Virus record (IMG/VR): IMGVR_UViG_3300049448_000712
Origin: a virus
Length of the DNA: 64,000 bases
Direction: 5' to 3' (one strand)
The first letter of the stretch is position 1. Each line of letters opens with the position of its first letter. The translations under genes and the position numbers were made by a program. Positions 18,828-61,470 of the stretch are shown in pieces. A model generated the notes under the pieces. It was not told the DNA's origin and ran no database searches. It saw only the letters and a list, made by a program, of their open reading frames with translations.

Positions 18828-19568
18828 GTGGCCTTCTACGGAAACCGCGCGCTGCGCGGCAGCCTGGGCGCCTTCGGAGCGTTCGCCGGCGGAGGTCGCC
18901 CCATCTTCGGGCCCTTCGCTTTCGCAGAGTCGTGGAGCTCGGACGACTTCGAGAGCGCCACCCAGTTCACCAACTGGGTGAAGCCGTTCCTCGATCAGGT
19001 CGCACGCACGGACCTCACGTTCTCGCCGCTGAGCGCTTTCACCAAGGCTCGAGCGGAGGCGAACTACAACCTCTGGGCGAAGGCGGCGCTCAACGGAGAC
19101 CCCCAGGCGCAGGCGTACAAGGACAGCATCGACTCGCAGATGACTTCGCTCATCCATCAAGCCGACTCGCTCTCCCTGTCCGGCGCGAACGGCCACCGCA
19201 GCGAGGGCACGGAGGTCGCGCGGTACGACGCGTTCAACTCCATCATCGCCCTTGCCTCGCAGCTCGCTTCGTCTTCTCCGTCGCCCGTGGCGCCGAAAGC
19301 GAACGTGGATCTCACCGGCCGGGTGTTGGTGGGCAGCGACACGAGCTCGGGCGGCACCGCCGCGAGCAAGGCGCAGGCTGCGGCGACAGGTGGCGACATC
19401 GTCACCAACGGCTCCCTGCAGCAAGGGAACCCCTTGCCCTCGAGCGGCCCGCCGTGGGCGCTCATCATCGGCCTGGGCAGCGTGGCCCTCGTCGGGGGAG
19501 TGATGCTCCTGCGGCGGCACAAGGCCGCGTCCGTGAGCGGGTACCGACGTCGAAGGAGCCACCGATGA
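18828..19568 (+). CDS. membrane protein with C-terminal GPPW-TM-GYRRRxRR tail
   Basis: C-terminus ...GPPWALIIGLGSVALVGGVMLLRRHKAASVSGYRRRRSHR; GTG start. Confidence 0.5.
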   Translation: MAFYGNRALRGSLGAFGAFAGGGRPIFGPFAFAESWSSDDFESATQFTNWVKPFLDQVARTDLTFSPLSAFTKARAEANYNLWAKAALNGDPQAQAYKDSIDSQMTSLIHQADSLSLSGANGHRSEGTEVARYDAFNSIIALASQLASSSPSPVAPKANVDLTGRVLVGSDTSSGGTAASKAQAAATGGDIVTNGSLQQGNPLPSSGPPWALIIGLGSVALVGGVMLLRRHKAASVSGYRRRRSHR

Positions 19569-19918
19569 GACGCCTGGGGCGGCACTACTTCGGCGAGGGA
19601 GTTGCGCCCAGCGACGCGGCTGTCGCTGACGCGGGCCCGGCGTCCGGGGACTACTCGGACCCGTACGCCTGGAACCCGAACTGGAACCAGCCGACGCCGA
19701 CGACGGGCGCGACCGTCAGGACGCCGGCTGGCATGGTGCCGCAGCTGCTGGCGGACCCGAGCCAGGTCGACATCAACCCCGACGGCACGCCGACGTACCT
19801 CGCTGCTCCAGGCCTGCCGAGCTGGGTGCTGCCGGTGGCGATCGGCGCCGGGGCCTTCCTGCTGCTGGGCGGCGGGGCTCTCATTTGGGGCGTGAGTCGT
19901 CGGAAGCGGAGGCGCTGA
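19564..19918 (+). CDS. membrane protein with C-terminal TM plus poly-Arg tail
   Basis: C-terminus ...PGLPSWVLPVAIGAGAFLLLGGGALIWGVSRRKRRR. Confidence 0.5.
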
Positions 19919-20253
19919 TGGCGCTCTACAAGTTGGACCGGATGGGGCTCGTCGCGGCCGGCGCGAGCACGGTGCTGTTCAGCAAGTCACCGATGCTCAG
20001 GGTGAACGTGCCTTCGATCAGCCCTGCCGCGCCGCTGTCCGCCCCTGTCAACACGCCGGGGCCGGTCGACAGCGCTGCAGTCACCGCCTCGGGGGCAGCG
20101 AGCGGCGACCCTGGCGCGATGTCCGATGGTCCTCCCTGGGGGCTGATCGTCGGCCTGGGGCTCGCTGGCGTGGCGGCCATCGGCGGCGTGGTGTATTGGC
20201 GCCGTCGGAAGAAGAGCTCGACAGCCGGCTACCGGCGCCGAGCGCGTCGGTGA
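19918..20253 (+). CDS. membrane protein with C-terminal GPPW-TM-GYRRRxRR tail
   Basis: C-terminus ...GPPWGLIVGLGLAGVAAIGGVVYWRRRKKSSTAGYRRRARR. Confidence 0.5.
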   Translation: MALYKLDRMGLVAAGASTVLFSKSPMLRVNVPSISPAAPLSAPVNTPGPVDSAAVTASGAASGDPGAMSDGPPWGLIVGLGLAGVAAIGGVVYWRRRKKSSTAGYRRRARR

Positions 20254-36398: not shown

Positions 36399-37049
36399 AT
36401 GAGTTTCACCCTCGCGCCCATCTACCTCGACGACGCGCGCGAGCTCTGCGTGCGCTACCACGGGTACGCCTCGGCTGGCGGAGTCGCGGTCTACGCGTTC
36501 GGAGTTCACGAGGGCGGCCGGCTAGTCGCCGCGTACGCCTGGCAGCCCCCGCCACCAGGTGCAGCCTCCTCGGTCTGCCCTGAGGCGCCGTACGGAGTGC
36601 TCGCGCTGTCGCGCATGGTGGCGGTGCCGAAGGCGGAGCGGGCTCTCAAGCACGTGAGCAAGCCGCTCAAGTACCAGATGAAGCGGCTGATCGATCGCAC
36701 CCGCTGGCCCGTGCTGGTGACGTACAGCGACGAGGGCGAGGGGCACAACGGGTTCGTCTACCAGTGCAGCGGCTGGGAGAAGACGAACCGCGCCGAGGTG
36801 AAGGTCTTCGAGAAGGACGGCAAGCGCGCCTCGGCGTACTCCAACGGTGGCTTCGGGAAGCGCGAGCTGGACGCGGCGGGCAAGACTTGGGTACAGCGGT
36901 GGGAGAACTGGGTCTGCCCAAGGGGTGAGGCGAAGAAGTGGATGATGGAGGGCGGCTGGGAGCGCGTGGCGATCGAGGGGAAGGTGTGGCGCTCGGGCAA
37001 CCCGGCTCACACGCTCCGACGCAGGCCGAAGCAGATGACGTTGCTGTGA
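36399..37049 (+). CDS. hypothetical protein
   Basis: ORF. Confidence 0.45.
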   Translation: MSFTLAPIYLDDARELCVRYHGYASAGGVAVYAFGVHEGGRLVAAYAWQPPPPGAASSVCPEAPYGVLALSRMVAVPKAERALKHVSKPLKYQMKRLIDRTRWPVLVTYSDEGEGHNGFVYQCSGWEKTNRAEVKVFEKDGKRASAYSNGGFGKRELDAAGKTWVQRWENWVCPRGEAKKWMMEGGWERVAIEGKVWRSGNPAHTLRRRPKQMTLL

Positions 37050-37067: not shown

Positions 37068-37328
37068 GTGACGATTACGCATACTGATTTGGAAGACGCG
37101 GCGCTTCTGCTCCGAAACGAGATCAAAGACGTCGATGCCAGTCTGGAGCAGATCCTCGAGAAGATGCCCAGCGAGCGCACGCTCGTCGCTGCGTTGGCAC
37201 TCAACGGGCTACTGAGCGACATGAAGTTCGAGTCGGCTCCGACGGAGGCTGCGGACACGGCCGTCAAATACGCCGACGCGCTCCTGCGCCGGCTCGCGAA
37301 GCAACACCCGATGGAGGGCGCACCTTGA
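37068..37328 (+). CDS. hypothetical protein
   Basis: GTG start; RBS gagggaggaaaaac upstream. Confidence 0.4.
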   Translation: MTITHTDLEDAALLLRNEIKDVDASLEQILEKMPSERTLVAALALNGLLSDMKFESAPTEAADTAVKYADALLRRLAKQHPMEGAP

Positions 37329-37804
37329 AGCTCGAGCGCACGTACGAAGCAGAGGCAGCGCACCAACTCTCGGCCGGCGTCCCCGACGGCCACCCGTGCA
37401 AGCGGCTCCACGGGCACCGCTACGTCTTCACGGTGGGCATCGCGGGCGACATCGATCCCGCGACGGGGATGATTCTCGAGTACGCCGAGATCGACGCGGC
37501 GGTGCTCGATACGCTCGACTACGTCGACCACCGGTTCACCAACAGGCTCGGAGAGAACGTTCGCGTCGAGGGCAGCGCGCTCATATACGAGCCCATAGAA
37601 GGCAAGATGCTCATGGCCTTCGAGCAGGCCTCCAAGGTCCGTGAGAACAGCACCGTGGAGAACCTGGGCGTGTGGTTCGTGGCAGAGCTCAAGGCCCGCT
37701 TCAAGCGCCTGCACGCGGTCGGCAAGCGGGTGCCGCAGGTGACCTCGGTGAGCATCCAAGAAGACTCGCGCAGCGTGTTCGAGGTCTGGGTCGGCGAGCA
37801 TTGA
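37325..37804 (+). CDS. queD: 6-carboxy-5,6,7,8-tetrahydropterin synthase QueD (6-pyruvoyl-tetrahydropterin synthase family)
   Basis: CKRLHGH (Cx3HGH zinc/catalytic motif) plus a downstream Glu/Asp/His region, in a ~160-aa protein. Confidence 0.75.
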   Translation: MKLERTYEAEAAHQLSAGVPDGHPCKRLHGHRYVFTVGIAGDIDPATGMILEYAEIDAAVLDTLDYVDHRFTNRLGENVRVEGSALIYEPIEGKMLMAFEQASKVRENSTVENLGVWFVAELKARFKRLHAVGKRVPQVTSVSIQEDSRSVFEVWVGEH

Positions 37805-42044: not shown

Positions 42045-42602
42045 TCACGCGTGCGCGAAGAACAGCGGCTTGATGAGTAGGCCGAAGCCGTTCTGCAGCG
42101 AGCCCTGGTTGAACGTCGCCGCGCCAGCCTGGGCGATCTGCATCGGCGACGTCGCGATCGGCAGCACCAGCGCCACGTGGCCGTGTCCGCCTGGGTTGTA
42201 GTACGCGGCCACGACGACCTGGCCCTGCAGCGCGAGGGCCTGCGCGTCATCGGGAGAGCTCACCGCGTACCAGCCGTCAGCGCCCGAGGCCATGTAGCTG
42301 ATCTGGTTGTTCGCCAGCGTGTCGGCCGGCATCGGCACGCCCAGGTCGTCGAGCATCAGGTACAGCGCCTTGTTGCACCAGTCGGCGCCGCCGTTCGCGC
42401 CCGGCTGCAGGTCCGGGTTGTGGCCTGGGTCAACGACGGCGACCGCGTCCAGAATCGTCTGCGGATCTCTCTGGAAGACGCTGGGCGCTACCTCGTACGC
42501 GGCCGTCTTGATCTTGTTGACGAAGAACGCGATGGCAGCTGCGGCTCCGCCGACGCCGACGAGAGTGCCAACGGTGACCCATCCGCCTTTGCCCTTGCTC
42601 AT
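42045..42602 (-). CDS. membrane-anchored CHAP-like cysteine amidase/peptidase (putative peptidoglycan hydrolase)
   Basis: N-terminal TM VTVGTLVGVGGAAAAIAFFV. Candidate catalytic Cys (GGADWCNKALYL) and His (GGHGHVALVL). Paralog of 44560..45033. Confidence 0.45.
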   Translation of the reverse strand: MSKGKGGWVTVGTLVGVGGAAAAIAFFVNKIKTAAYEVAPSVFQRDPQTILDAVAVVDPGHNPDLQPGANGGADWCNKALYLMLDDLGVPMPADTLANNQISYMASGADGWYAVSSPDDAQALALQGQVVVAAYYNPGGHGHVALVLPIATSPMQIAQAGAATFNQGSLQNGFGLLIKPLFFAHA

Positions 42603-42943
42603 GTGTACCTCATGCGCGCTTCAGGAGACCGCTCGCCTGCTCTGCGGCATTCCTCCTTGAAGAAGTGGTACCTCGAAACGACTTGCCCGTCGTCATCGAG
42701 GTACTCAAGCACCTCTTCACCGGGCACGAACTCCCATCCACACGCGGCGCAGGCATGTGGACCCGTGGAGCGCTTCGGAGGAATGCGATTCGGACCATAG
42801 CCCGCTCGCTTGTGACGCGAATCATACGCCTGATGCTCCAGCGAATGCCGGAGCTCGATCTCAAGACGGCGCTGCTCGGCGCGCTTCTCTCGGATGAGCT
42901 CCAACTGCTTGAGCGCCCTCCGCGCTTTTTCCCTGTCGCTCAC
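42599..42943 (-). CDS. hypothetical protein
   Basis: ORF; CAACGWEF. Confidence 0.4.
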   Translation of the reverse strand: MSDREKARRALKQLELIREKRAEQRRLEIELRHSLEHQAYDSRHKRAGYGPNRIPPKRSTGPHACAACGWEFVPGEEVLEYLDDDGQVVSRYHFFKEECRRAGERSPEARMRYT

Positions 42944-42949
42944 GAGCAG

Positions 42950-43210
42950 CTACCACTTCGCGTAGAGGGCGTTGTGGACCTTGGTGTAGTTGAGGCCGTG
43001 ATGCGAGGCCTCGCGCAACACCGCTTCGAGATCGGCGATTCGAGCTCGGAGACGCGCGTTCTCCGCCTCAAGGGGAGATGGCGTAATGGCGGCGACGGGC
43101 GCATCAACGGAGCCCTGCTCATCCGAGCTCGGCGGAGGCGGAGGAATGATCACCGAGGGCGGAGCCGCGCGATCATCCGGCTTCGGCTTCTCACTTTTCA
43201 GTTTGCCCAT
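42950..43210 (-). CDS. hypothetical protein
   Basis: Internal start MGKLKSEKPKPDD; Pro-rich and coiled. Confidence 0.3.
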   Translation of the reverse strand: MGKLKSEKPKPDDRAAPPSVIIPPPPPSSDEQGSVDAPVAAITPSPLEAENARLRARIADLEAVLREASHHGLNYTKVHNALYAKW

Positions 43211-43610
43211 TTCTGCCTCCTTGCGCCTGCGTCCAGTGCCTACGAGCTCGTGTACCCCAACCGATGGCCAAATTGTGGGCCACATGTGCCCCAATGGCCC
43301 CCAGGAGCCCGAACTGGCGGAAGGCTGTCTCGTAGAGCGCTCCACCCAAGAGCACGTCGCCGAAGCGCGCTGCGGCGGCGTTCGGCTGCAGAGAGCCGCG
43401 CTTGAGCTCGCCCATGACGTGATCGGCCGCGAAGGTGACGGCGGTCGAGCCGTACGGCAGGTTCGGCGCCGCCCAAAGCGGCACGCCGCGGTAGAGGAAC
43501 TCTTCCTTCGCCGGCCCGAACAGGTCCTGCTCCGCGTGGAAACGCTCGCGCCCCACCTGGGTCAGCCCCTTGAGGAAGCCGTACGCGGCGCTGGCGAGCA
43601 CTGGGAGCAC
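43191..43610 (-). CDS. CPBP-family (CAAX protease/Abi) intramembrane glutamic protease, C-terminal catalytic part
   Basis: All three CPBP motifs are present: EEFLYRG (EExxxR), FAADH (FxxxH) and HVAHN (HxxxN). Confidence 0.65.
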   Translation of the reverse strand: MLPVLASAAYGFLKGLTQVGRERFHAEQDLFGPAKEEFLYRGVPLWAAPNLPYGSTAVTFAADHVMGELKRGSLQPNAAAARFGDVLLGGALYETAFRQFGLLGAIGAHVAHNLAIGWGTRARRHWTQAQGGRNGQTEK

Positions 43611-43611
43611 C

Positions 43612-44070
43612 TTACGGGCTCAGCTCCGGCAGGTACTGCTCGAGCTCTTTCTGCCGCTGCACCACCTCGACAGCGCGGACGAAGCCCAGTGCGGCGGCTC
43701 CGACACGAACGAACCCTGGCATCCGCGGGTGCAGCGCGATGTACGCCATGAAGGGGAGCTCGACGAAGAGCGACAGCGCCCGCGCGCGCTGGTCCATCGC
43801 GAGCGACAGGAGCTGGTCAGCGACCTCCGACGGCACCGCGTTGCCCTGGCCGTACGAGTACGCGGGGGCGGCCGGCTGCGCAGCCTGCTGGGCAGGAGCT
43901 CCACCCCCGAGGATCGTCGTGCCGCCGCCCGACGCCTGCACGGGGGGCTTCGTGGTGGAGTAGATGGTGCCGGACCCCATGCGGGCCTGGCCGTCGACTT
44001 CTTCGTACTCGGCGTCTTCCTCTTCGCCGAACGGCCCAAGAACGTGTCGCATGCGACTCCATTCTCCCAC
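43612..44070 (-). CDS. hypothetical protein with one hydrophobic segment; possibly the detached N-terminal part of the CPBP protease
   Basis: Its stop lies 1 nt from the CPBP ORF start, in a different frame. Confidence 0.35.
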   Translation of the reverse strand: MGEWSRMRHVLGPFGEEEDAEYEEVDGQARMGSGTIYSTTKPPVQASGGGTTILGGGAPAQQAAQPAAPAYSYGQGNAVPSEVADQLLSLAMDQRARALSLFVELPFMAYIALHPRMPGFVRVGAAALGFVRAVEVVQRQKELEQYLPELSP

Positions 44071-44078
44071 GAATCAGC

Positions 44079-44558
44079 TCAGAAAGGGATACCGGCCTCA
44101 AGCAGTTGATCGGCGAAAACTCGCATGCCCGCGGTGCGATCTGCTGGCGTTTCTGCAGTGCGAATCGCTTCTACAACGTGCCTCATCGGTCGCAGGTCTT
44201 CACGCTCCAGCCACACCATGTAGAGCAACGCCCTATGCTGCCGCTCATGAAACGCCAAGCGAACCGTTCGCTCAAGCTCCTCAACCGACCGAGGGTCGAA
44301 GCGCCACTCGGCAATGGCCCGTGCGCCGTGTGCATCGGTTTCTGTCACCCATATGATCACTTGTTTCTGGCCGCGAGCCTCTGACGGCTTCCATACCGAC
44401 GCTACGACCTGAAACACCACAGGAGCACCAGGGCCGGGATAGTCGAAGCGCCGAAGAGGCTCGCCCTTCGGGGCGCGCTGAACGACTCGTCCGTTGCCGT
44501 TCACACGAACGAAACTGAAGCCCAAGAAAAGGTCCGTGAATTCTGCCTCGGAGATCAT
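44079..44558 (-). CDS. hypothetical protein
   Basis: Internal start MISEAEFTDLF. The upstream 130 codons are S/R/T-rich and overlap the next gene out of frame. Confidence 0.4.
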   Translation of the reverse strand: MISEAEFTDLFLGFSFVRVNGNGRVVQRAPKGEPLRRFDYPGPGAPVVFQVVASVWKPSEARGQKQVIIWVTETDAHGARAIAEWRFDPRSVEELERTVRLAFHERQHRALLYMVWLEREDLRPMRHVVEAIRTAETPADRTAGMRVFADQLLEAGIPF

Positions 44559-44559
44559 T

Positions 44560-45033
44560 TCAGAGGTGCCAGAAGAAACGAACCGGCAGGTTCCCGAAGC
44601 CCTTCTCGAGCGGCGCATCGAGGTAGTTGTGCGCGCCGGCCTGCGTGATGTGCGGACGCAGCGTGCTCTCCGAGGGGACGACGAGCCCGATGTGGCTGTG
44701 CCCCTCGGGCGGGTTCTTCGAGTTGCGGTACGTGACGATGACCGGGTAGCCCTTGTTCGCGAAGGCGACCGCCTCACCGGAGCTGCACTCGCTCCAGCCG
44801 GCCGCCTCGCCTGCGTCGGAGGCCAGCCAGTCGATCTGCTGGTGCGCGAACCAGCCCGGCGTCGGGAACGGGACCTCGAGGTCTTCCAGCAACCCCTGCA
44901 CGTACAGGTTGCACCAGGTGGTGCCTGGAGCGGGGTGGTTGGGCGCATAGCGCGGCTCGCTCTCGACCTTCCGTGCCGCGACGAGCTCCTTTGTCTTTTC
45001 CGGGGATCTGACGCACTGCAGGGTGTCCGTCAT
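44560..45033 (-). CDS. CHAP-like cysteine amidase/peptidase paralog
   Basis: RBS AGGAG before the ATG. TTWCNLYVQ and EGHSHIGLVVP align with the Cys and His regions of 42045..42602. Confidence 0.45.
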   Translation of the reverse strand: MTDTLQCVRSPEKTKELVAARKVESEPRYAPNHPAPGTTWCNLYVQGLLEDLEVPFPTPGWFAHQQIDWLASDAGEAAGWSECSSGEAVAFANKGYPVIVTYRNSKNPPEGHSHIGLVVPSESTLRPHITQAGAHNYLDAPLEKGFGNLPVRFFWHL

Positions 45034-45060: not shown

Positions 45061-45423
45061 GTGGCACGAATCCTCGTGGTTGACGACGACTTCTCCATCG
45101 CCCGCGTGCTCACCGAGCTCTTCGAGCGCTGGGGGCACGAGACGTTCATGTGCAGTGACGGCCTCGACGCTATCGCCACGCTTGAGGTGCGCCGGCCGGA
45201 TGCCGTCGTCACCGACTGGCAGATGGGTGAGGTCTCAGGCGTCGATGTGCTCGAGGTGGCACGCACGCGCGTACCCGACTGCAGGCGCATTCTCATCACC
45301 GCCTCGCCAACAGCTGACGAGGTCCGCGAGGCGGTGCGCTCGGGTGTCGCGGAGTACCTGATCGAGAAGCCGTGGAGCCTCGTCGACTTCAAGGTCGCTC
45401 TGCGCGGCCTTCCCGCCGACTGA
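45061..45423 (+). CDS. stand-alone response regulator receiver (REC/CheY-like) domain protein
   Basis: ILVVDDD, phosphoacceptor-region VVTDWQM and conserved Lys LIEKPW. GTG start. Confidence 0.7.
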   Translation: MARILVVDDDFSIARVLTELFERWGHETFMCSDGLDAIATLEVRRPDAVVTDWQMGEVSGVDVLEVARTRVPDCRRILITASPTADEVREAVRSGVAEYLIEKPWSLVDFKVALRGLPAD

Positions 45424-45841
45424 GCTCTTCGCGGAGCACCTCGCGCACGGTGCGCTCGAGCTCAGAGTTGAGGACCCCGGTGAGCTTTCGGTTGAGCTCC
45501 GTCGTCACGTCGGCCAGCCCCTTCTCGAGCCGCTCCTCATGAGACTTGCCGGACTTCTCGATGCGCGTGTCAAGGTGGCCGATGCTCGTCCTTATGCCGT
45601 TGAGCTCGGAAGCGATGCTGCTGCTCGAGGCGTCCATCTTGATCTGGACCTGGCCTTGCGTCTTCTCGAGATCATTGAGCCGGAGCTCGTGCTCGTCGAG
45701 CTTCTTCTGCTGGGCCTTCTCCGCATCATCTCTGGCCTGCACGTTGCGCGCGAAAGAGCCCTTCACGAGCGGCAGCAGCATCTCCTTGCCGACCCAGACT
45801 GCGATGGCACCGTAGACTGCGAGCTCGGCGTTCTCGGTCAT
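45389..45841 (-). CDS. membrane coiled-coil protein
   Basis: TM AELAVYGAIAVWVGKEMLL, then a coiled coil. Confidence 0.4.
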   Translation of the reverse strand: MTENAELAVYGAIAVWVGKEMLLPLVKGSFARNVQARDDAEKAQQKKLDEHELRLNDLEKTQGQVQIKMDASSSSIASELNGIRTSIGHLDTRIEKSGKSHEERLEKGLADVTTELNRKLTGVLNSELERTVREVLREELSRREGRAERP

Positions 45842-46293
45842 CGCGGCCCCATGCACGCCCACGAGAACTTGTCGTTCGCCGTGCCGTTGAACACCGCCTG
45901 CGACGTCGAGATGGTAGCGATCGGCACGTCACACGCGGCGACCGCGGTCCCGTCGGAGCAGAAGCAAGCGGGGTTGTCGGTGAACGCGTTCTTGAACGTG
46001 ACCGTCTTCGTACCGCCCGCGCTGAGCACATCTCGGCCGACTTCCATGTAGAGCGCCTGGGTGCCACCGTCTGTGAGCGCCCCAACGACGTTGATGCGAC
46101 CGTTCGCGATGTTGTTGCCACCCGCCTGCCAGTCGCCGCCGACCATGCCGGTGCCGCCGTCGAAGATGCCCGAGTAGGTCGTGTTGCCGATCACCCCCGG
46201 CGTCCCGTTGGGGATGGTGAAACCAGCGAACGCAGCTCGGACTCCGATGCTGCCCACGACAACGCCAACGAGAAACAACGAGAGCTTTTTCAT
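45838..46293 (-). CDS. secreted protein
   Basis: Signal peptide MKKLSLFLVGVVVGSIGVRAAFA; Gly/Thr-rich. Confidence 0.45.
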   Translation of the reverse strand: MKKLSLFLVGVVVGSIGVRAAFAGFTIPNGTPGVIGNTTYSGIFDGGTGMVGGDWQAGGNNIANGRINVVGALTDGGTQALYMEVGRDVLSAGGTKTVTFKNAFTDNPACFCSDGTAVAACDVPIATISTSQAVFNGTANDKFSWACMGPR

Positions 46294-53922: not shown

Positions 53923-54327
53923 TCATCGGCGGCTCCGGCGACGGTAGCCGGCCGTCGACCGCGACTTCTTCATCGAACGAGCGATGACGCCCAGCACCAC
54001 GACGCCCCCGACGCCGATCACAACCCAGCCCCAGAGCGGAAGCCCCGGCTGCACGGCAGTCACCGTGGGCTGCACCGGGCGGCCGAAGATGTCGACCACA
54101 CCGGAGACGATCGACTTCCCCAGGCCCAGGTAGTCGCTCGCGCTGAGCCCGCTGGGCGAGCCTGCGGTCGTCTGCACGGGCGGGCTGAAGTAGTCGCCGG
54201 GCACGCCCTGCGCGACGCTGTAGCCCTGCCCCGTGTTGACGACCGGCTCCGGCGTCGTCGTCACGTACTCGATGTCGGTCGAACCAGCGGCAGGATCGTA
54301 CGGCTGGTAGTCATCACCAAAACGCAT
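53923..54327 (-). CDS. protein with C-terminal GLPLW-TM-GYRRRSRR tail
   Basis: C-terminus ...QPGLPLWGWVVIGVGGVVVLGVIARSMKKSRSTAGYRRRSRR. Confidence 0.5.
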   Translation of the reverse strand: MRFGDDYQPYDPAAGSTDIEYVTTTPEPVVNTGQGYSVAQGVPGDYFSPPVQTTAGSPSGLSASDYLGLGKSIVSGVVDIFGRPVQPTVTAVQPGLPLWGWVVIGVGGVVVLGVIARSMKKSRSTAGYRRRSRR

Positions 54328-54340
54328 TGTGCTTCTCCTT

Positions 54341-54640
54341 TTATCGTACTGCTCGAATCACGAGAACTGCAGCCACCGCGCCGCCAACGACGAGCCACAG
54401 CGGTGGCCCCTGATCAACGGGCACGAGCACCGGCTGCGGAGCCAGAGCTCGCTGCGTCGCGTTGGCGAAGACGTTCACCCAGAAGCTCGGCTGCTGGTAG
54501 TACGGCACCTGCTGCGGAGGCGGGTCCGCGTGCATGTAGCCGTCCGGCCACAGGTAGCCCTGCGGCAGAGGCGGCGGCGCCGCATCGACCAGCGGGGGCG
54601 ACGTGAGATCGTCGCCGAAGGTGAACGACCTGAAGCTCAC
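54341..54640 (-). CDS. Pro-rich protein with C-terminal GPPLW-TM
   Basis: C-terminus ...DQGPPLWLVVGGAVAAVLVIRAVR. Confidence 0.4.
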   Translation of the reverse strand: MSFRSFTFGDDLTSPPLVDAAPPPLPQGYLWPDGYMHADPPPQQVPYYQQPSFWVNVFANATQRALAPQPVLVPVDQGPPLWLVVGGAVAAVLVIRAVR

Positions 54641-55119
54641 CGCTGCGCCTTCCGCTTGTAGCCCTCGAGCCGTCGCTCAGGCTCGAACTCGTACTTGTCG
54701 CTCTTGTCGCCGAAGCGGCCCATGCCGCGCGGACGGCAGCTCGCCATTCGCGACGAGCTCGAGCTCGAGCTCCGACCGAGACCGCCGACGCGGAGATGCG
54801 ACATCGTCTTCGTCATGCGCCGGAGGTTGTGCTTCGGATCCTCCGACTCGGGGTAGTCGTACGCGTCGATCTGCTTGGGCTTCTGGTAGTGCCGCCAGAT
54901 CAGGTACAGCGCGACCGCGCCGCCCGCGAGCCCGAGAATCATCAGCGGCGACATCGACGGCGGGCTCACCTGCTGCGCGAGGGCCTGAGCGGCAGCCGGG
55001 TTCTGCTGCTGGTACGTCGCCCATGCGCTCATCACGGTCTGATCGCTCGCGTTCGGCTGAATGACGCCGATGGCGGAGAGCGCAGCACGGAGGTTTGCAA
55101 CCAAAGTCGGATCCATCAT
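54637..55119 (-). CDS. membrane protein with central TM and basic Ser-rich tail
   Basis: SPPSMSPLMILGLAGGAVALYLIW, then a Lys/Arg-rich region. Confidence 0.4.
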   Translation of the reverse strand: MMDPTLVANLRAALSAIGVIQPNASDQTVMSAWATYQQQNPAAAQALAQQVSPPSMSPLMILGLAGGAVALYLIWRHYQKPKQIDAYDYPESEDPKHNLRRMTKTMSHLRVGGLGRSSSSSSSRMASCRPRGMGRFGDKSDKYEFEPERRLEGYKRKAQR

Positions 55120-55649
55120 CGTCTCCCTGAAACGCGCTTCTTCGCGCTGCGGAACACCCGCGACAGCCCGGCGACCTCGAAGAGAATCGGAGCAAGGACG
55201 ACGGCTCCGACCACCACCGCGCCCGCGATGAACAGCGGCTTCAACTTGGCGAGCGTGTCATCGGGCGGGCTGACGTACGGGCTCTGCGCAGGCGGCACGT
55301 AGGCGTTCTTCTGAGCTCCCACCGAGTCGAGCAGCCCCTGCATCGAGTCCGAAGCAGTGTCGAGCGTCGCCGTAACCTGCGCGCAGGCATCGTCACTCTC
55401 GATGACAAGGTTCTGGTTGACGACGTTGTCGTACGTGTCTTGCGCGGCCACCGCGACAGGGTGCCCTTCGTTCGCCGTGAACCAGTGCGTGACGAGCAGC
55501 TTCGCCGCCGTCGCCTGGTCGAGCAGCGACTTCAGCCGCGCCTGCGCGTTGCGCACGTCGTCGCAGGCGTAGGTGAGACCGAAAGCGCCGAAGCCACCCT
55601 CGGCGGTCGGCGAGCGAAACCTCGGGTCTGGGAAGAGCATCGTCGGCAT
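55116..55649 (-). CDS. protein with N-terminal MPTMLFPDPRFRSPTA motif and C-terminal TM plus basic tail
   Basis: Shares its first 16 residues with 58862..59560. Confidence 0.45.
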   Translation of the reverse strand: MPTMLFPDPRFRSPTAEGGFGAFGLTYACDDVRNAQARLKSLLDQATAAKLLVTHWFTANEGHPVAVAAQDTYDNVVNQNLVIESDDACAQVTATLDTASDSMQGLLDSVGAQKNAYVPPAQSPYVSPPDDTLAKLKPLFIAGAVVVGAVVLAPILFEVAGLSRVFRSAKKRVSGRR

Positions 55650-55651
55650 GG

Positions 55652-56680
55652 TCAGAACTTGTTGTTCGGGTAGAGCCGCGGGTCGAGCTTCGGGAGGTTC
55701 GGCCTCGACGGCGCCATCGGCACCTGGGTGGGAAGCTCGCGCTGCGCGTAGGGCACGTTGCGCCAGCCGATCATGCTGAGCGCAGGAGAAGCAGACACGG
55801 TCGTGCCCGTGTACGCGCTCCACAGCCGCTCGAGAGTGAACGTGTAGAACCCCTTCGGCGGGAGCACCGCGTTCACCGTCCACGCGAAGTCGTTGAAGTT
55901 GAAGAGATGCGCGAACGGCGTCGGGTCTCTGACGAGGATGTTGTTGAACGAATCCTGCGCCGTGACGAGCGTGCCCGTCGTGGTGATCCCGCTGACGGAG
56001 TCGACGTTTTCTGAGGCGAGCGTCATGTACGAGAACTCGTCGAGATGCTCTTGCACGAGCAACTGGCCGAGGAAGCGCTGCACATGCAGGTCTTCGTTCC
56101 ACGGGTTGTAGATGTCCGACGGAGTCGACACCTGCACATCGTCCGACACGCCGGCCTGAAGGAACGGCGGAACGAACGCGGTGGCCCACGGCAATTGCAG
56201 CGTTCTCGGAGTCGGTGTGCCCTTCGGCAGCGGCCGGACCGCGTAGCAGATCGTCACCACCTGATCGACTTGCGCGTGCCCCGAGAGCGGGAAGGTCGGC
56301 GCGTAGTAGACGATCGGCCGCAGAAACTCGCGCGCCGGGATGAACAGCGGCTTGGGGAGCTTCCACGTGAAGACGGTCTGACCGCCCGTCGTGGCCGGAA
56401 ACTGCGCCCTGTAGTTGAGGTTCTTGCCGAAAAGCCCGATGGGCACGTTGCCCGACGTGAGAGGAAGCGAGCCCAGAAGCAGCTTCAGGTAGATGCTCGA
56501 GCCCCAGTACCCGTAGGTCTGCTGGCCTCCAGGGTTGGTCGGGAGACGAACGCGAACTTCATCGAGCCACATCGGCGCCTGAAAGGGGTTCTCGAGCCGG
56601 GTGGGATCAGCCAGTCCCACCTCGCCGCCGCCCGAGGGAAGCGTGATCTGCGCCTGCAGCAACTGCGGAGAGTAGCTCAT
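55652..56680 (-). CDS. paralog A of a three-gene family (342 aa)
   Basis: Shares motifs with B and C: W(K/R)LPxP(L/M)(F/Y), KVQRF-like, LPPKG, and a C-terminal IGWR. Confidence 0.5.
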   Translation of the reverse strand: MSYSPQLLQAQITLPSGGGEVGLADPTRLENPFQAPMWLDEVRVRLPTNPGGQQTYGYWGSSIYLKLLLGSLPLTSGNVPIGLFGKNLNYRAQFPATTGGQTVFTWKLPKPLFIPAREFLRPIVYYAPTFPLSGHAQVDQVVTICYAVRPLPKGTPTPRTLQLPWATAFVPPFLQAGVSDDVQVSTPSDIYNPWNEDLHVQRFLGQLLVQEHLDEFSYMTLASENVDSVSGITTTGTLVTAQDSFNNILVRDPTPFAHLFNFNDFAWTVNAVLPPKGFYTFTLERLWSAYTGTTVSASPALSMIGWRNVPYAQRELPTQVPMAPSRPNLPKLDPRLYPNNKF

Positions 56681-57624
56681 AGCAGTTCGTCCCTCGTGCC
56701 GATGATCGCCATGTGGAGCTGCTCCGTCGACACCATGTTGAAAGCGCGCACGTCGTACTGCCCCTTCGGCGGAAGAATGGTGTCGACGGTCCACGCGCAC
56801 CGCGGCGCGTCGGCGACATCGTTGGGCCCGGTCAGATCATTGACCATCTTCCCGCCCCACGAGTCGAACATCTGGATCTGCATCGTGCTGACGAAGCTGC
56901 CAGGCGTGGTGGTGCTCGCAGGCGTGAGCGCCTGCTTGAGATCGAAAGCGCCAATCTGGGCGTTGAGCACGCGCGCAGTGATGCGCTGCACCTTGATCTC
57001 CTTGTCGAACGGGTTGAACAGGTTGTACTCGTTCGACTGCTGGTAGCCGTTGCCGAACGTCGTCACCCACGGAGCGACGTACGGGACCGCGATGACGCGA
57101 GGCAACGGAGCGCTGGTCGGCACCGTGTAGCCCGCGTACGTGACCTGCACCGTGATGTCGCCAGCGGGGACGCCGAGACTGTTCGGGTCGACGCGCTGGA
57201 AGGTCGACTGCAGCACCTGCCCGGCCTCGACGTAGAGCGGCTCAGGCAACCTCCAGCGGTAGGCAGAGAACGCCTGCCCGCTCGCAGAATCGTACGTCTC
57301 GTCTTCCGAGTTGGCGTTGACGCCGAGGTCCATCAGCGGGCTCAGCAGCCACACCGGAACGAAGTCGCGCATCAAGTAGTAGCGACCGATCTGCAGTTTG
57401 GTCCAGATCGCCGCGCCCAACGCGAGTGTGGCCGCGTTGGTGGCCTTCATCACCCAGCGGATCTCCGTGATGATGATCGGCTTGCGGTACGGGTACGTGA
57501 GCTGAAGGCTGCTCGGCACCGCAGTCTTGTTGAGCGACACGTTCGCGGAAGCCGACAGCAGCACAGGCGAGCGACGATCAAACGTCGGTGAGACAGCGAC
57601 CGGCTTGTTCGGAACGGGGCTCAC
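56677..57624 (-). CDS. paralog B of the three-gene family (315 aa)
   Basis: GTG start overlaps the TGA of paralog C (GTGA). The upstream ORF extension is out-of-frame junk. Confidence 0.5.
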   Translation of the reverse strand: MSPVPNKPVAVSPTFDRRSPVLLSASANVSLNKTAVPSSLQLTYPYRKPIIITEIRWVMKATNAATLALGAAIWTKLQIGRYYLMRDFVPVWLLSPLMDLGVNANSEDETYDSASGQAFSAYRWRLPEPLYVEAGQVLQSTFQRVDPNSLGVPAGDITVQVTYAGYTVPTSAPLPRVIAVPYVAPWVTTFGNGYQQSNEYNLFNPFDKEIKVQRITARVLNAQIGAFDLKQALTPASTTTPGSFVSTMQIQMFDSWGGKMVNDLTGPNDVADAPRCAWTVDTILPPKGQYDVRAFNMVSTEQLHMAIIGTRDELL

Positions 57625-58703
57625 AACGCCACCTCTCTCCACCCAATCAACGAGATGAAAGCCTGGCCCTGAATTCCGGTGTAGCCGAAGCCACCGATGC
57701 CAGGCAGCGCGGCGGACTTCAAGAGCGCGAGGTAATACGCCCCCGGGTCGAGCTCGACGCCGGAGCCCTCGAGCTCCCAGGACCGCGTGAGACCTGAGAA
57801 CACCGAAGTGAAGGGCGTGTAGTAGCGCACGGTGGGACGACCGTACGAATCCATCATGCGAACGGTGAGACCGTCCTCTCGAAACGCGGCACCGAACGTG
57901 GGTCCTTCGTACGCGTGATCGCCTGACTGAATGACGATGGCCCGGCCGACGAAGCGCTGAACCTTGAGTATCTGCGCAGCGCCCTCGAAACCGGTCGAGT
58001 CGTTGACGAGGTCCACGTGACCCGACTGATCCGTCCCCGCCGTGGTGAGCGGGTTGAAGACCTTCGACGTGAACGCGCTCGCCCACGGCAGGCACACGAC
58101 CTTGGGCTTGATGAAGAGCGAACGCGCCGACATGCTGAAGCGCACGTTGATGGGGAGCGCGATGAGCCCCGTGTGAGTGAAGTTGGCGATCACGGTCGCA
58201 CCGGCCGGAACGAACATCGGCCGCGGCAGGCGCCACGAGAACGTGTTGTAGAGATTGAGCGACGCGAGAGTCGCGTACTCCGCCGTGAGATTCTCCGCTC
58301 GTCCGAGCGAAAACACAGGCACCGCGCCGTTCGTGAGCTTGTAGTTGCCCAGCTTCAGTTCGACGGCGATCGATGCACCCAGGACCGCGTCCAGCGCGAA
58401 GCCGCTGTTGCCCAGCGACAGCAATTGAAACTTGAGCTCCGTCACCTCCATGTCCTGCCCCATGGGGTTGGTCATCACCGAGGGCTGAACGCTCCCTGAC
58501 GTGCCAGGCTGAAGCAGCAGCGAACCAGACAGGTGGATCGGCGCGGCGGGCGGCGGCTGGTGGTAGACGGGGTTCTGGTTGTACCCGGGCAGCGGGCGAG
58601 GCAACGCGCCTTGCGGAACGATGAAAGGCATCTCGTCAACCCCCCCACATGCGGAGACCGCAGCAGCGGCCATCAACACATCTCGACGCCGAAGATTCGA
58701 CAC
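57621..58703 (-). CDS. paralog C of the three-gene family; predicted Tat-type lipoprotein
   Basis: GTG start with GGAGGAG 10 nt upstream. N-terminus SNLRRRDVLMAAAAVSAC has a twin-Arg segment plus a lipobox Cys. Confidence 0.5.
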   Translation of the reverse strand: MSNLRRRDVLMAAAAVSACGGVDEMPFIVPQGALPRPLPGYNQNPVYHQPPPAAPIHLSGSLLLQPGTSGSVQPSVMTNPMGQDMEVTELKFQLLSLGNSGFALDAVLGASIAVELKLGNYKLTNGAVPVFSLGRAENLTAEYATLASLNLYNTFSWRLPRPMFVPAGATVIANFTHTGLIALPINVRFSMSARSLFIKPKVVCLPWASAFTSKVFNPLTTAGTDQSGHVDLVNDSTGFEGAAQILKVQRFVGRAIVIQSGDHAYEGPTFGAAFREDGLTVRMMDSYGRPTVRYYTPFTSVFSGLTRSWELEGSGVELDPGAYYLALLKSAALPGIGGFGYTGIQGQAFISLIGWREVAL

Positions 58704-58861: not shown

Positions 58862-59560
58862 TTACGCGCGGACGTCGGCCATCACGCCGCACCACAGGTT
58901 GCACCAGACGAGCGAGCTCTGGCCGACACCCGTGGAGACGCTGAACGTCAGCGACACGCCGCCCGCCGTGCCGAACTCGACCTCGAGCTGGTCGGTGCGC
59001 GCGGCCGGCAGGAACACCTTGAGCCGGCGCCCACCGTTCGGCCAGCCGTTGTTGAGGAACGACACGAGCGAGTTGTTCTGCGTGGTCGAAACCGCGCCGA
59101 ACGTCGCGCCCGGGGCCGGGAAGAACTGCGTCGGACCTTCGATCTGCTTCGTTCCGCTGATGCGGAAGATCAGGAAGGTCTTCGCCTGCATCTCCGAGAC
59201 CTCCTGCTGCCCCATGCCGTACGTGTTGAGCACGCCGACGCTGGAGTAGTAGCCAGTCTCGTACCCGATCCCGATGCTGCGGATCGAGAGCTCACCGATG
59301 GCCGAACCCACCTCGCCGGCCTTGCCGAGGTTGGTGTTCAGCTTCGTCATCGTGAGCAGGTGCTGAGCGGTCGGCGCGATGCCGGCGCCCATCAGGCGCG
59401 GAATCGACTGACCCTCGGGCACCGTGAAGATCTTCTGGGTGCCCGAGCCACCGTGGCCGACGACGAGGGACGAGTAGATGTTCTCGTCGCGACCACCGGA
59501 CTGGCCGGCAGCGGCGGTGGGAGAACGGAAGCGGGGATCGGGAAACAGCATCTGAGGCAT
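58862..59560 (-). CDS. protein with N-terminal MPQMLFPDPRFRSPTA motif (232 aa)
   Basis: Same N-terminal motif as 55116..55649; Gly/Ser/Thr-rich. Confidence 0.45.
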   Translation of the reverse strand: MPQMLFPDPRFRSPTAAAGQSGGRDENIYSSLVVGHGGSGTQKIFTVPEGQSIPRLMGAGIAPTAQHLLTMTKLNTNLGKAGEVGSAIGELSIRSIGIGYETGYYSSVGVLNTYGMGQQEVSEMQAKTFLIFRISGTKQIEGPTQFFPAPGATFGAVSTTQNNSLVSFLNNGWPNGGRRLKVFLPAARTDQLEVEFGTAGGVSLTFSVSTGVGQSSLVWCNLWCGVMADVRA

Positions 59561-59677
59561 GTGGTGCTCCTTCATGCGCCATGGGTCTGGCGCGGGGGTT
59601 GGACTGCGACGAGCTCAAAAGTGCTGAAGGGCGGCGGCCAGCTCACCTCCGCCGCCCCGAATGGCTGTGGAACTGCG

Positions 59678-60449: not shown

Positions 60450-60929
60450 CTACTTCCGCGACTTGCGACCACGCTTGAGGTTCTTCCTCATGCACGCCTG
60501 GTAAGAGCCCTTCCGCTTTCCGCGCGAGCTCCGCGCGCACTTCTTGGCGACCTTCTTGAAGCGCGACTGCGCCTTGGTGTTGCGACCCTTCTTCACGTGG
60601 TACCCCTTCCGTTTGAGTTTGCGAGTGAGACGTCCGCTCTCGGTCGGAGGTCCGTACGAGCCGCGGCTCGAGTACAGCGGCTCGACGTAGTAGGGGCGCC
60701 GGCCGTACGAGCCCATGCCCGCGGGCATCGTGCGCGGAGCGAAGCCGTAGCTGCTCGGCATCTCGCGCGGGTCGAACCCGTAGCCCTGCACGCGCGGGTT
60801 CTGAAAGAGCGGAGCTCCGTACCGCTGCATCCGCGGGTTCTGAAAGAGCGGAGCTCCGTAGCGCCGGGACGAACGACGCGAGGGCCGACGACCCATGCCT
60901 TCAAAAACAGCGATGCGAGTGCGGCTCAT
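60450..60929 (-). CDS. extremely basic protein with GAPLFQNPR(M/V)Q(R/G)YG repeats (candidate nucleic-acid-condensing protein)
   Basis: Start at MSRTRIAVFEGMGRR. Two tandem GAPLFQNPRxQxYG repeats and a C-terminal third that is more than 40% Lys/Arg. Confidence 0.45.
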   Translation of the reverse strand: MSRTRIAVFEGMGRRPSRRSSRRYGAPLFQNPRMQRYGAPLFQNPRVQGYGFDPREMPSSYGFAPRTMPAGMGSYGRRPYYVEPLYSSRGSYGPPTESGRLTRKLKRKGYHVKKGRNTKAQSRFKKVAKKCARSSRGKRKGSYQACMRKNLKRGRKSRK

Positions 60930-61303
60930 CGACGTGCTCTCCTGTTTCTCCGGTGGTAGCCGGACATCTTCTTCGCGGCAGGCGGCTTGAGCGCGGCGAC
61001 AACGAGCAGCGCGCCAGCGAGGCCGGCTCCAACAAGCAGCACCATGCGAAGCGTCGACTGCTGCTCCGCCTGCTGCATGGCGACAGCCTGGGCCTGAATC
61101 TGTGCCTCGGCCTCTTGCGCCTGGGCCTGGGCGATCGGCTTGTCGACGAAGACGCCCTTGAGGAGATCCCAGGGCGAGGCCTTCTGCACGAGGTTCGCGC
61201 CTGCGTTGAGCAGATCGGACGCCCAGTCGCCGTAGTGACGAAAACCACTGAGCGACTTGAGCTGCGCGGGGAACTCGCGCTGCGTGTAGAACTGGACGCT
61301 CAT
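60926..61303 (-). CDS. protein with C-terminal TM-GYHRRNRRARR tail
   Basis: C-terminus ...MVLLVGAGLAGALLVVAALKPPAAKKMSGYHRRNRRARR; ATGA overlap. Confidence 0.45.
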   Translation of the reverse strand: MSVQFYTQREFPAQLKSLSGFRHYGDWASDLLNAGANLVQKASPWDLLKGVFVDKPIAQAQAQEAEAQIQAQAVAMQQAEQQSTLRMVLLVGAGLAGALLVVAALKPPAAKKMSGYHRRNRRARR

Positions 61304-61470
61304 CGACGGAGCACCGAGTAAGCGAGGCCGCCCAGCAGCGCGACCCCGGCAATGGCACCGAGCACCACGTACGGGCTGGTCGGCACCCGGTAGAGATCAG
61401 GGTTCGGCGCGCTCACGTTGACCGGTGCAGTCGCGGCGCCCAGAACGCTGGAGAAGATCGTGCCCCACAT
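61300..61470 (-). CDS. small membrane protein (56 aa) with C-terminal TM plus RR
   Basis: Translation MWGTIFSSVLGAATAPVNVSAPNPDLYRVPTSPYVVLGAIAGVALLGGLAYSVLRR. Its stop overlaps the next ATG (ATGA). Not in the ORF track. Confidence 0.35.
   Translation of the reverse strand: MWGTIFSSVLGAATAPVNVSAPNPDLYRVPTSPYVVLGAIAGVALLGGLAYSVLRR

Follow-up and report, generated by a model that had tools for sequence, protein, structure and literature searches.

The question raised by this locus is what a virus does with a gene whose short product carries all the catalytic motifs of a CPBP-family intramembrane protease, and whether such a gene is complete at all. The gene occupies positions 43191..43610 of the minus strand in a stretch of viral DNA of 64,000 nucleotides (IMG/VR record IMGVR_UViG_3300049448_000712), the whole of which is referred to here as the window. 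A preliminary description of the window, made from its letters and translations, had placed two open reading frames (ORFs) at this point, the CPBP-like ORF and another at 43612..44070 on the same strand, and both were located as claimed. It also suggested that the gene may have been split by a frameshift or may be part of a minimal two-piece enzyme, and that its product was either a sorting protease or an Abi-type immunity factor. Our analysis leads elsewhere, in that the window gene is neither broken nor a demonstrated protein-sorting enzyme. To our knowledge, CPBP proteases are abundant in bacteria and substrates are known for few of them.

A CPBP/Rce1-like protease core

The ORF at 43191..43610 starts with GTG and encodes 139 amino acids that correspond to the core of an Rce1-like glutamic-type protease, which we call mini-CPBP. 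The protein is laid out as an N-terminal helix, four core helices that bear the motifs, and a basic C-terminal tail. The three CPBP motifs recognized in the preliminary description can be read in the translation as KEEFLYRG (E36, E37 and R41), FAADH (F60 and H64) and HVAHN (H109, H112 and N113). Furthermore, they are invariant in 34 aligned homologues that span identity down to 38%, the unchanging positions being E36, E37, Y40, R41, F60, D63, H64, H109, H112 and N113. When the profile search was considered as a whole, EExxxR, FxxxH and HxxxN were all intact in 115 of the 137 proteins.

The match to PF02517 that had been anticipated was obtained, and it was the sole Pfam family match of the window protein (E 3.4e-4), but its 21.3 bits lie 1.1 bits short of the gathering score of 22.4 bits. 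All 34 aligned homologues matched the same family at E<=0.01 (best 1.2e-7) and matched no other. Motif invariance and PF02517 matches together indicate that the motifs did not arise by chance, and conservation across the alignment demonstrates that the putative catalytic residues of the family are under selection. The predicted fold of mini-CPBP resembles solved CPBP structures. Consequently, membership of the CPBP/Rce1-like superfamily is supported by profile, invariant motifs and predicted fold. Note that a search of PDB sequences with the mini-CPBP family profile returned nothing relevant, that NCBIfam gave no match for the window proteins, and that PHROGs gave none for mini-CPBP, for the upstream protein (hereafter X) or for the amidases described below.

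A complete small protein and its upstream neighbor

The preliminary description considered that the ORF has too few N-terminal transmembrane (TM) helices for a complete enzyme, a concern that is removed by the size of its homologues. A word-indexed search recovered 36 of them, 112-175 aa in length, and an exhaustive profile search gave 106 matches, nearly all of 87-182 aa; longer CPBPs of canonical size were reached by the family profile solely at E 1e-6 to 1e-3. Judged from these sequences, about 100 homologues, with few exceptions 110-180 aa long, constitute a stand-alone mini-CPBP family, and the window gene is complete, encoding a minimal member of about 130 residues with five predicted helices that carry the full set of EExxxR, FxxxH and HxxxN.

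Protein X (43612..44070, minus strand; probable ATG at 44052) is a conserved upstream neighbor. Its alignment revealed a variable, acidic N-terminus followed by a conserved C-terminal region of about 60 aa with two weakly hydrophobic helices, and its maximum KD19 is 1.48. It had no Pfam, PHROG or NCBIfam match. Homologues of X were found with tblastn or blastp in L001, L003, L004, L005, L006, L007, L009-L013, L019 and L020. On whether X and mini-CPBP could be the two pieces of one enzyme, the loci point both ways, since X accompanies CPBP in the main clade but was not found beside CPBP in L014 and L015, the two most divergent loci.

Could X be the missing N-terminal half of a canonical multi-pass CPBP that was broken at 43611 by a frameshift or a sequencing error? 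The two ORFs do abut within 1 nt and in different frames, the TAA stop of X (43614..43612) lying one base ahead of the GTG of mini-CPBP. However, many independent assemblies contribute homologues and all of these are short, and relatives carry X and CPBP as separate genes, in which the stop of X overlaps the start of CPBP or, in L004 and L013, two small ORFs stand between them. X also lacks similarity to CPBP or to any other family, and its variable, acidic N-terminal half is not transmembrane. Since the homologues are uniformly short and stand-alone and X is a separate gene, the frameshift split is not supported; it is effectively refuted, and we regard it as exceedingly improbable.

Low hydrophobicity of the helices

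The window protein contains no 19-residue segment that reaches a KD of 1.6, and the family means per helix are 1.32, -0.05, 0.27, 0.51 and 0.78. When core helices H3 and H4 were aligned, their mean KD was 0.37 and 0.42 in mini-CPBPs, as opposed to 1.13 and 1.12 in canonical CPBPs. Segments with KD19>=1.6 were present in only 9 of 87 mini-CPBP members, whereas 8 of the 10 longer CPBP matches in the comparison set carry 2-8 such segments. The charge of mini-CPBP is concentrated in its basic C-terminal tail (about 6 K/R). Because hydrophobicity is much lower than in canonical CPBPs, membrane integration of mini-CPBP is put forward as a proposal, and it is in this sense that we infer a membrane location. 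The difference is evident in comparison with Rce1/MmRce1, the type II CAAX prenyl protease of the same Pfam family (PF02517; PDB 4cad), which has eight hydrophobic TM helices and cuts after a prenylated Cys. In contrast, mini-CPBP corresponds to the core plus one helix, its hydrophobicity is low, and no CAAX-type substrate is evident. Mini-CPBP keeps every catalytic residue within 130 residues, and no smaller catalytic core of this fold was seen in the analysis, which would make it attractive for structural and mechanistic study, especially if it is only weakly membrane-bound.

The cassette in the window

Mini-CPBP lies within an unbroken leftward block, immediately past X, and no promoter-like site was found near it, although the test was a weak one. 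Upstream of X, the block encodes a soluble Tse1/Tae1-like papain-fold peptidoglycan amidase (44560..45033, minus strand), for which the listed ORF extends to 45138 and the probable ATG is at 45033; a hydrophobic N-terminus is absent. Between this amidase and X lies a small ORF of 159 aa (44079..44558, minus strand) with no Pfam match. TM-plus-coiled-coil proteins are encoded farther upstream, at 45389..45862 in the window and at 7178..7588 in L015.

On the downstream side, a Pro-rich/coiled-coil ORF of 86 aa, recognized from sequence and translation (42950..43210, minus strand), has AAGGAGG ahead of its ATG and overlaps the final 20 nt of the mini-CPBP gene. It is followed by a coiled-coil, Cys-rich (zinc-ribbon-like) protein of 114 aa (42599..42943, minus strand), which had a weak match to phrog_22138 and has a homologue at the equivalent position in L003 (11567..11866). 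The leftward late block ends with a gene (42045..42602, minus strand) for another Tse1/Tae1-like amidase, this one with an N-terminal TM anchor (KD19 1.93 at residue 9). The anchor is Gly/Ala-rich, MSKGKGGWVTVGTLVGVGGAAAAIAFFV, and the protein is a candidate endolysin of the signal-anchor-release (SAR) type. The profile of the Tse1-like family, to which both amidases belong, matched Tse1 in the PDB at E 4e-8 to 9e-8, with the Cys (in WCN) and the His (in GHGH) invariant; a Pfam scan of family members returned nothing at E<=0.1, so that the identification comes from the profile-against-PDB search alone. No protein of the window cassette matched a holin or spanin in PHROGs or Pfam.

Conserved linkage to membrane-anchored hydrolases

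Relatives provide a view of which parts of this arrangement are kept. The region downstream of CPBP was visible in about 11 distinct loci (the window, L001, L003, L004, L005, L007, L010, L011, L013, L014, L015 and L020; L012 is identical to L005 over the compared region). In about nine of them, a gene 0-1.9 kb downstream of CPBP on the same strand encodes a hydrolase whose N-terminus forms a Gly/Ala-rich anchor. In the window and L005 this anchored hydrolase is Tse1-like; it is a VanY in L001, L003, L004, L011, L013, L015 and L020, and a glucosaminidase (PF01832) in L014, and L003 has an anchored SLT besides its VanY. L007 presents an SLT-like ORF 182 nt downstream of CPBP, for which a start and an anchor are only putative, and in L010 the protein encoded downstream has a hydrophobic N-terminus and belongs to no recognizable family. 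Across loci, the catalytic type of the hydrolase is swapped while the anchor and CPBP are retained. In L014 and L015, where CPBP is most divergent (41-44% identical), the remaining neighbors differ. CPBP and the anchored hydrolase gene nevertheless overlap, stop to start, in these two loci, as they do in L005; in most loci, 1-3 small, unrelated genes (HNH endonucleases, acidic proteins) stand between the two.

A soluble hydrolase is found upstream of CPBP, either Tse1-like or, in L014, an Amidase_2, and homologues of the soluble amidase in relatives lie 1.2-2 kb upstream of CPBP. Overall, mini-CPBP occupies a fixed late-block position in every relative with the region visible. Gene order thus identifies it as a core gene of a putative lysis cassette, which closes the late operon at its 3' end. 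The roles listed in the preliminary description, sorting and Abi/immunity, had missed this conserved link to membrane-anchored peptidoglycan hydrolases.

A possible role in the control of lysis

Because mini-CPBP is conserved beside membrane-anchored enzymes that degrade the cell wall, its most likely function is to assist in the control of host lysis. We tentatively propose that it may be a lysis-module protease or regulator that acts on membrane-tethered endolysins. Evidence for a lysis role is guilt by association throughout, and it is from this association that we infer both the substrate of mini-CPBP and its effect on lysis. The loci are not independent, as most of them belong to a single virus lineage whose synteny is shared.

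Late in infection, mini-CPBP would be located beside the tethered hydrolase, on the cytoplasmic membrane or weakly inserted in it. There it might dock on the N-terminal anchor of the hydrolase, in the manner of SpdC with SagB, or it might cleave the anchor or a short cytoplasmic stub, or the co-translated partner X. Either option would allow mini-CPBP to determine when release or activation of the hydrolase takes place, and with it the timing of lysis. The more specific proposal, that an active five-helix mini-CPBP triggers or times lysis by cutting the endolysin anchor, a basic cytoplasmic stub or X, is one that we consider doubtful. If true, it would describe a 'proteolytic releasin', a lysis-control principle that is new to description. 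We know of no protease requirement for SAR endolysins. The conserved pairing with anchored endolysins of four enzyme classes suggests the participation of an intramembrane-type protease in phage lysis control.

A close parallel to the proposed lysis role is SpdC (LyrA) of Staphylococcus aureus, a CPBP protein found in complex with SagB, a TM-anchored glucosaminidase (10.1101/2020.05.21.109470; PDB 6u0o). Like mini-CPBP, SpdC is paired with a hydrolase held by one N-terminal TM helix, and the downstream partner in L014 belongs to the Pfam family of SagB itself, PF01832. However, SpdC is a cellular protein of about 450 aa with eight TM helices and has lost its catalytic residues, whereas the viral protein has about 130 aa, keeps all catalytic residues, is weakly hydrophobic and is encoded in a viral late operon. 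Moreover, SpdC and SagB form a physical complex, while for the viral pair a complex is a proposal. A second parallel is offered by gp25 of phage Mu, the 'releasin' that controls the release of a SAR endolysin (PMC9239132), and by pinholins, which are likewise small accessory proteins found beside signal-anchor endolysins and proposed to control their release. Releasin (DUF2730) has no kinship with mini-CPBP in sequence or fold; it is membrane-tethered and cytoplasmic and lacks catalytic motifs. Two genes upstream of CPBP in L014 there is a weak match to DUF2730 (E 0.006), below the cut-off. Our literature search found no protease described in a releasin-like lysis role. Phage-encoded CPBP/YdiL-like proteins are known, among them gp60 of phage G (PMC12484599), but their annotation is that of ordinary membrane proteases, and they have not been reported in lysis cassettes.

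Alternative functions

Enzymatic activity itself may be questioned, and mini-CPBP could be a non-proteolytic small membrane protein, that is, a holin, pinholin, antiholin or pure scaffold similar to SpdC. With about 130 aa, a strongly basic C-terminal tail and several Gly/Ala-rich helices of weak hydrophobicity, it fits holins in general, and the cassette has no other obvious holin. However, its hydrophobicity falls short of what is typical of holin TM domains, and the full catalytic set, invariant among the 34 aligned sequences and intact in most members of the wider family, follows the pattern expected of an enzyme, which makes a non-proteolytic role distinctly improbable. An immunity function that protects the infected or lysogenic cell against superinfection, against bacteriocins or against a Tse1-like amidase acting from outside, whether the virus's own or a competitor's, would agree with the known roles of CPBP proteins, which include bacteriocin self-immunity and, in the case of the CPBP-related ComM, immunity to the CHAP hydrolase CbpD (10.1101/2024.09.27.615381). 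ComM, which protects Streptococcus pneumoniae during fratricide, likewise has a functional link to a murein hydrolase of the Cys-His (CHAP/papain-fold) type; it is cellular and multi-pass and guards against a secreted enzyme, whereas mini-CPBP is viral and late and is associated with several hydrolase types. The gene is flanked by two amidases of a family of T6SS toxins with dedicated immunity proteins, and integrase genes in an adjacent block of relatives indicate that these may be temperate. Against the Abi/immunity idea of the preliminary description, no PADLOC model matched CPBP, X, either amidase or two distant relatives. Mini-CPBP is encoded within the late structural/lysis block in translational coupling with X, no promoter-like site of its own was found, and it keeps its position in relatives as a core gene would, unlike accessory genes, which usually come and go. 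Furthermore, the change of partner from one hydrolase type to another (VanY, SLT, glucosaminidase) is hard to square with immunity to a specific enzyme. Consequently, we judge an immunity role unlikely.

The remaining alternative makes mini-CPBP a maturation or 'sorting' protease that trims or removes the PxW-TM-[AS]GYRRRxRR tails of virion membrane proteins at the cytoplasmic face, much as -AAX is taken off by Rce1 and MYXO-CTERM is cut by myxosortases. The proteins with a conserved C-terminal tail that had been pointed out in the window are indeed there. At least four follow the strict pattern of a hydrophobic helix, a short spacer and a terminal [AS]GY[RH]RR..RR (18828..19568 and 19885..20253 on the plus strand, 53923..54327 and 60926..61303 on the minus strand), and four follow a looser one (55116..55649, 54341..54640, 54637..55119 and 61300..61470, all on the minus strand). 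They are conserved in relatives, where tail proteins are encoded in the structural module (three each in L017, L018, L019 and L020 and one in L015). CPBP and tails share genomes, being found together in the window, L015, the L001/L017 contig, the L003/L018 contig and L020, and all genome regions with mini-CPBP fall in this same lineage. However, co-occurrence within a single lineage does not discriminate in favor of sorting, and adjacency is lacking, with tail genes located 10-25 kb from CPBP and some of them on the opposite strand. The GYRRR element is degenerate (RYSGxxR) in L021-L023, a divergent sub-clade covered by about 20 kb per contig, and L022, of which 21 kb are covered, shows no CPBP in the visible 10 kb of its late block, a pattern that is in line with sorting.

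The layout of the tails, with a motif, a TM helix and an Arg cluster, resembles the sorting signals described by Haft, and the myxosortases that process such signals (MrtX, MrtC, MrtP, MrtJ, MrtS and MrtA; 10.1101/2023.06.07.544157; PMC11980579) have the CPBP superfamily in common with mini-CPBP. However, each of the four CPBP-processed signals has an invariant Cys (10.1101/2023.06.07.544157), whereas the motif that precedes the helix here is G-P-P-W or P-x-W-V, without Cys in all window and relative sequences. Unlike the partners of myxosortases, the candidate substrates also lack N-terminal signal peptides and are not linked to the protease by gene neighborhood; in a simple hydropathy scan, the C-terminal segment was the sole hydrophobic one in the proteins at 18828..19568, 53923..54327 and 60926..61303. 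The extreme C-terminal GYRRR is the most conserved element of the tail, which argues that the tail works in the mature protein rather than being discarded. The window protein matched none of the NCBIfam Mrt models, and the very weak MrtJ/Mrt_core matches of a distant member, P0036 (E ~0.01), reached 15.5-16.6 bits against cut-offs of 75-100. With a link at whole-genome level, no Cys and no Mrt model, the sorting idea finds no specific support and is in our opinion improbable.

The virus lineage

The lineage that carries mini-CPBP comprises bacterial viruses of 71-89 kb with double jelly-roll capsids, a group previously undescribed. A tailed-phage context was considered and rejected, since the large ORFs tested had no match to capsid, portal or tail families and the modelled capsid paralogue is predicted to be a double jelly-roll protein. 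A 332-aa protein that serves as an anchor for the lineage gave 195 clusters. Neither mini-CPBP nor the structural protein with the strongest conservation had a tblastn match among 50,697 GenBank phage records, and pattern scans for mini-CPBP relatives found none in IMG/VR and none in GTDB genomes. The virions are presumably membrane-containing. The group is notable for its contig size and for its three capsid-gene (MCP) paralogues, given that a 2018 survey of prokaryotic double jelly-roll viruses covered genomes of 7-18 kb (PMC5894146).

A minimal CPBP protein family

The ORF at 43191..43610(-) encodes a protein of 139 aa with a GTG start codon, and carries the three CPBP motifs that the preliminary description had read there: KEEFLYRG (residues 35-42), FAADH (60-64) and HVAHN (109-113). 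The sole Pfam match of this protein, here called mini-CPBP, is PF02517 (Rce1-like; E 3.4e-4), which it covers from profile position 13 to 92 of 93 at 21.3 bits, slightly below the gathering score of 22.4 bits. A database search recovered 36 homologues of 112-175 aa, and E36, E37, Y40, R41, F60, D63, H64, H109, H112 and N113 are invariant in a 34-sequence alignment reaching down to 38% identity. All 34 aligned homologues match PF02517 and no other family (best E 1.2e-7). When 1.84 billion representatives were searched exhaustively with a profile, only 106 proteins scored at E<=1e-3, and almost every one measured 87-182 aa; CPBPs of canonical size (about 200-370 aa, one of 1,333 aa) were confined to the range E 1e-6 to 1e-3. 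Of 137 proteins examined, 115 preserve all three motifs, and the catalytic residues are under purifying selection.

Protein X, encoded directly upstream (43612..44070(-)), ends in a TAA stop codon that sits one base before the mini-CPBP GTG in another frame, and a gene split by frameshift had been proposed. That a canonical CPBP gene was broken in this way is highly improbable. The X stop overlaps the CPBP start in relatives, two small ORFs keep the genes apart in L004 and L013, and the C-terminal ~60 residues of X (RARALSLFVELPFMAYIALHP..PGFVRVGAAALG) can be aligned across relatives behind an acidic, variable N-terminus. Since the homologues are uniformly short and X is a separate, conserved gene, mini-CPBP is a complete, stand-alone protein made up of one N-terminal helix, the four core helices that bear the motifs, and a basic C-terminal tail. 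The minimal CPBP protease family that it defines is known so far from a single lineage of large double jelly-roll (DJR) viruses, and its link to anchored endolysins is conserved. X matched no family in Pfam, PHROG or NCBIfam, and at L014 and L015, the loci of greatest divergence, it was not found adjoining CPBP. HNH/AP2 homing-endonuclease-like genes adjoin the X/CPBP pair in some relatives (L001 10417..11118; L003 8900..9520 and 10525..11136), and not in the window.

The family is unusually hydrophilic for CPBP, and few members have a hydropathy-predicted transmembrane (TM) helix. The mean hydropathy (KD) of aligned helices H3/H4 is 0.37/0.42, whereas the comparison set of longer CPBP matches gives 1.13/1.12; a 19-residue window with KD>=1.6 occurs in only 9 of 87 members, and the family mean GRAVY is about 0.18. 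Mini-CPBP may be integral, dynamically membrane-associated like signal-anchor-release (SAR) domains, partner-dependent or soluble.

Gene order and anchored hydrolases

Wherever the region is visible, CPBP keeps one position: it lies at the 3' end of the late strand that carries the structural genes, immediately before the convergent block. The window order is a soluble amidase (44560..45033(-)), a small ORF (44079..44558(-)), X, mini-CPBP, two small ORFs (42950..43210(-) and 42599..42943(-)) and an anchored amidase (42045..42602(-)) whose N-terminus carries a Gly/Ala-rich transmembrane segment (KD over 19 residues 1.93). The two amidases are paralogues sharing an invariant Cys and His, and by profile they match Tse1, a peptidoglycan amidase of type VI secretion (E 4e-8 to 9e-8); Pfam does not recognise them. 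These Tse1/Tae1 homologues, members of a T6SS amidase toxin family, appear to act here as lysins of the virus, the one soluble and the other signal-anchored.

The downstream anchored enzyme differs among relatives. It is a VanY peptidase in L001, L003, L004, L011, L013, L015 and L020 (with an extra anchored SLT in L003), a Tse1-like paralogue in L005 and a glucosaminidase (PF01832) in L014, where the order is Amidase_2, mini-CPBP, anchored glucosaminidase. An SLT-like ORF is the candidate enzyme downstream of CPBP in L007, and the L010 protein has a hydrophobic N-terminus and matches no identified family. Every hydrolase with a readable N-terminus carries a Gly/Ala-rich hydrophobic segment, typical of SAR endolysins. 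The CPBP-to-hydrolase distance is 0-1.9 kb, and the CPBP stop overlaps the hydrolase start in L005, L014 and L015. L014 and L015 hold the most divergent CPBPs (41-44% identity) amid otherwise different neighbours. CPBP and the anchor are therefore the constants across loci and the catalytic domain is variable, which suggests that CPBP deals with the anchor or with membrane tethering.

Two genes upstream of mini-CPBP, L014 encodes a TM-plus-coiled-coil protein (1105..1593) whose similarity to the phage Mu releasin family, DUF2730, stays below threshold (E 0.006; 17.1 bits, cut-off 24.9 bits); a like architecture occurs at window 45389..45862 and L015 7178..7588.

Lysis control and alternative roles

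The best-supported reading, which we hold tentatively, is that mini-CPBP is a lysis-module protease or regulator. It would dock on, or cut, the tethered endolysin's anchor region, or alternatively cleave X, and so control endolysin release and the timing of lysis. Such a role is plausible because precedents exist: the CPBP-related ComM protects against the CHAP hydrolase CbpD (10.1101/2024.09.27.615381), and the SAR endolysin of phage Mu is freed by a dedicated 'releasin', dependence on which is determined by basic residues of the short cytoplasmic stub (PMC9239132). Like the Mu enzyme, the window's anchored amidase has a basic stub (MSKGKGG). The literature searched yielded no description of a phage lysis cassette that contains a CPBP.

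The preliminary description had offered two other roles. One was sorting of proteins with a conserved C-terminal motif, TM helix and Arg tail. This tail family is borne out: at least four window proteins end in a helix, a spacer and [AS]GY[RH]RR..RR preceded by GPPW or PxW (18828..19568(+), 19885..20253(+), 53923..54327(-) and 60926..61303(-)), looser versions occur at 55116..55649, 54341..54640, 54637..55119 and 61300..61470 (all -), and in each of L015 and L017-L020 the corresponding structural module contains between one and three. Otherwise dissimilar, these proteins, conserved across the lineage, share a PxW motif, then a TM helix and, behind a short spacer, [AS]GYRRRxRR at the very end of the chain. 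No specific link to CPBP was found, and a sorting protease is unlikely. The motif is degenerate (RYSGxxR) in the divergent sub-clade L021-L023, and no CPBP was seen in the visible late block of L022, a hint of co-variation from partial genomes; however, the two are linked only by presence in the same lineage, all four CPBP-processed sorting signals have an invariant Cys that the tails lack, the tail proteins have no N-terminal hydrophobic signal, and mini-CPBP reaches no NCBIfam myxosortase model. Moreover, the extreme C-terminus is the best conserved part of the tail, which suggests a function for it in the mature protein. The other proposal, Abi or immunity, is just as doubtful, with no PADLOC match and a poor fit to the fixed late-operon position. 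Size and basic tail would suit a non-catalytic holin or scaffold, but the invariant catalytic set does not, and we consider this quite improbable.

The tail proteins are probably virion inner-membrane proteins. Two different proteins, 58862..59575(-) and 55116..55649(-), begin with the same M-P-x-M-L-F-P-D-P-R-F-R-S-P-T-A, perhaps a signal for targeting or assembly that both use; one of them (237 aa) is the lineage's most conserved protein (81-84% identity to L017-L020). The anchored VanY of L003 (12266..12817) begins MKRRRQRYGYSRG, a cytoplasmic stub adjoining the TM helix that, in this one relative, resembles the GYRRRxRR tail in reversed order.

The virus lineage

The virus looks like a member of an undescribed lineage of large DJR viruses, possibly a more surprising object than mini-CPBP itself. 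No relative was found among GenBank phages, IMG/VR or GTDB genomes, and the large window ORFs tested gave no match to portal, tail or HK97-type capsid proteins. Three tandem paralogues, 25-30% identical (57621..58703, 56677..57624 and 55652..56680; block 55652..58703(-)), are all conserved in relatives on contigs of 71-89 kb, with no Pfam or PHROG match and no homologue among GenBank phages. The bacterial and archaeal DJR viruses PRD1, PM2, STIV and FLiP have an internal membrane, which fits the many small membrane proteins of the structural block. An FtsK/HerA-type packaging ATPase is expected for a DJR virus; none was identified among the window ORFs tested. Prokaryotic DJR viruses in a 2018 survey measured 7-18 kb (PMC5894146).

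The similarity of the 608-aa protein of 4595..6421(+) to a terminase large-subunit PHROG is only partial, being limited to residues 18-228 (E 4.6e-14); the C-terminus of this protein carries an HTH. The window also encodes a DNA methylase, ThyX, a dNMP kinase, an SPFH protein and a glycosyltransferase. In divergent relatives the structural module is closely preceded, on its upstream side, by a gene for a protein that combines Ro60/TROVE and vWA (L021 1..346; L022 945..2672). Window ORFs 36399..37049(+) and 37325..37804(+) match regions of L003 (15578..16563) at 69% and 38% identity, and the Mom (PF25680) and PTPS (PF01242) Pfam matches of those regions suggest a putative DNA base-modification module.
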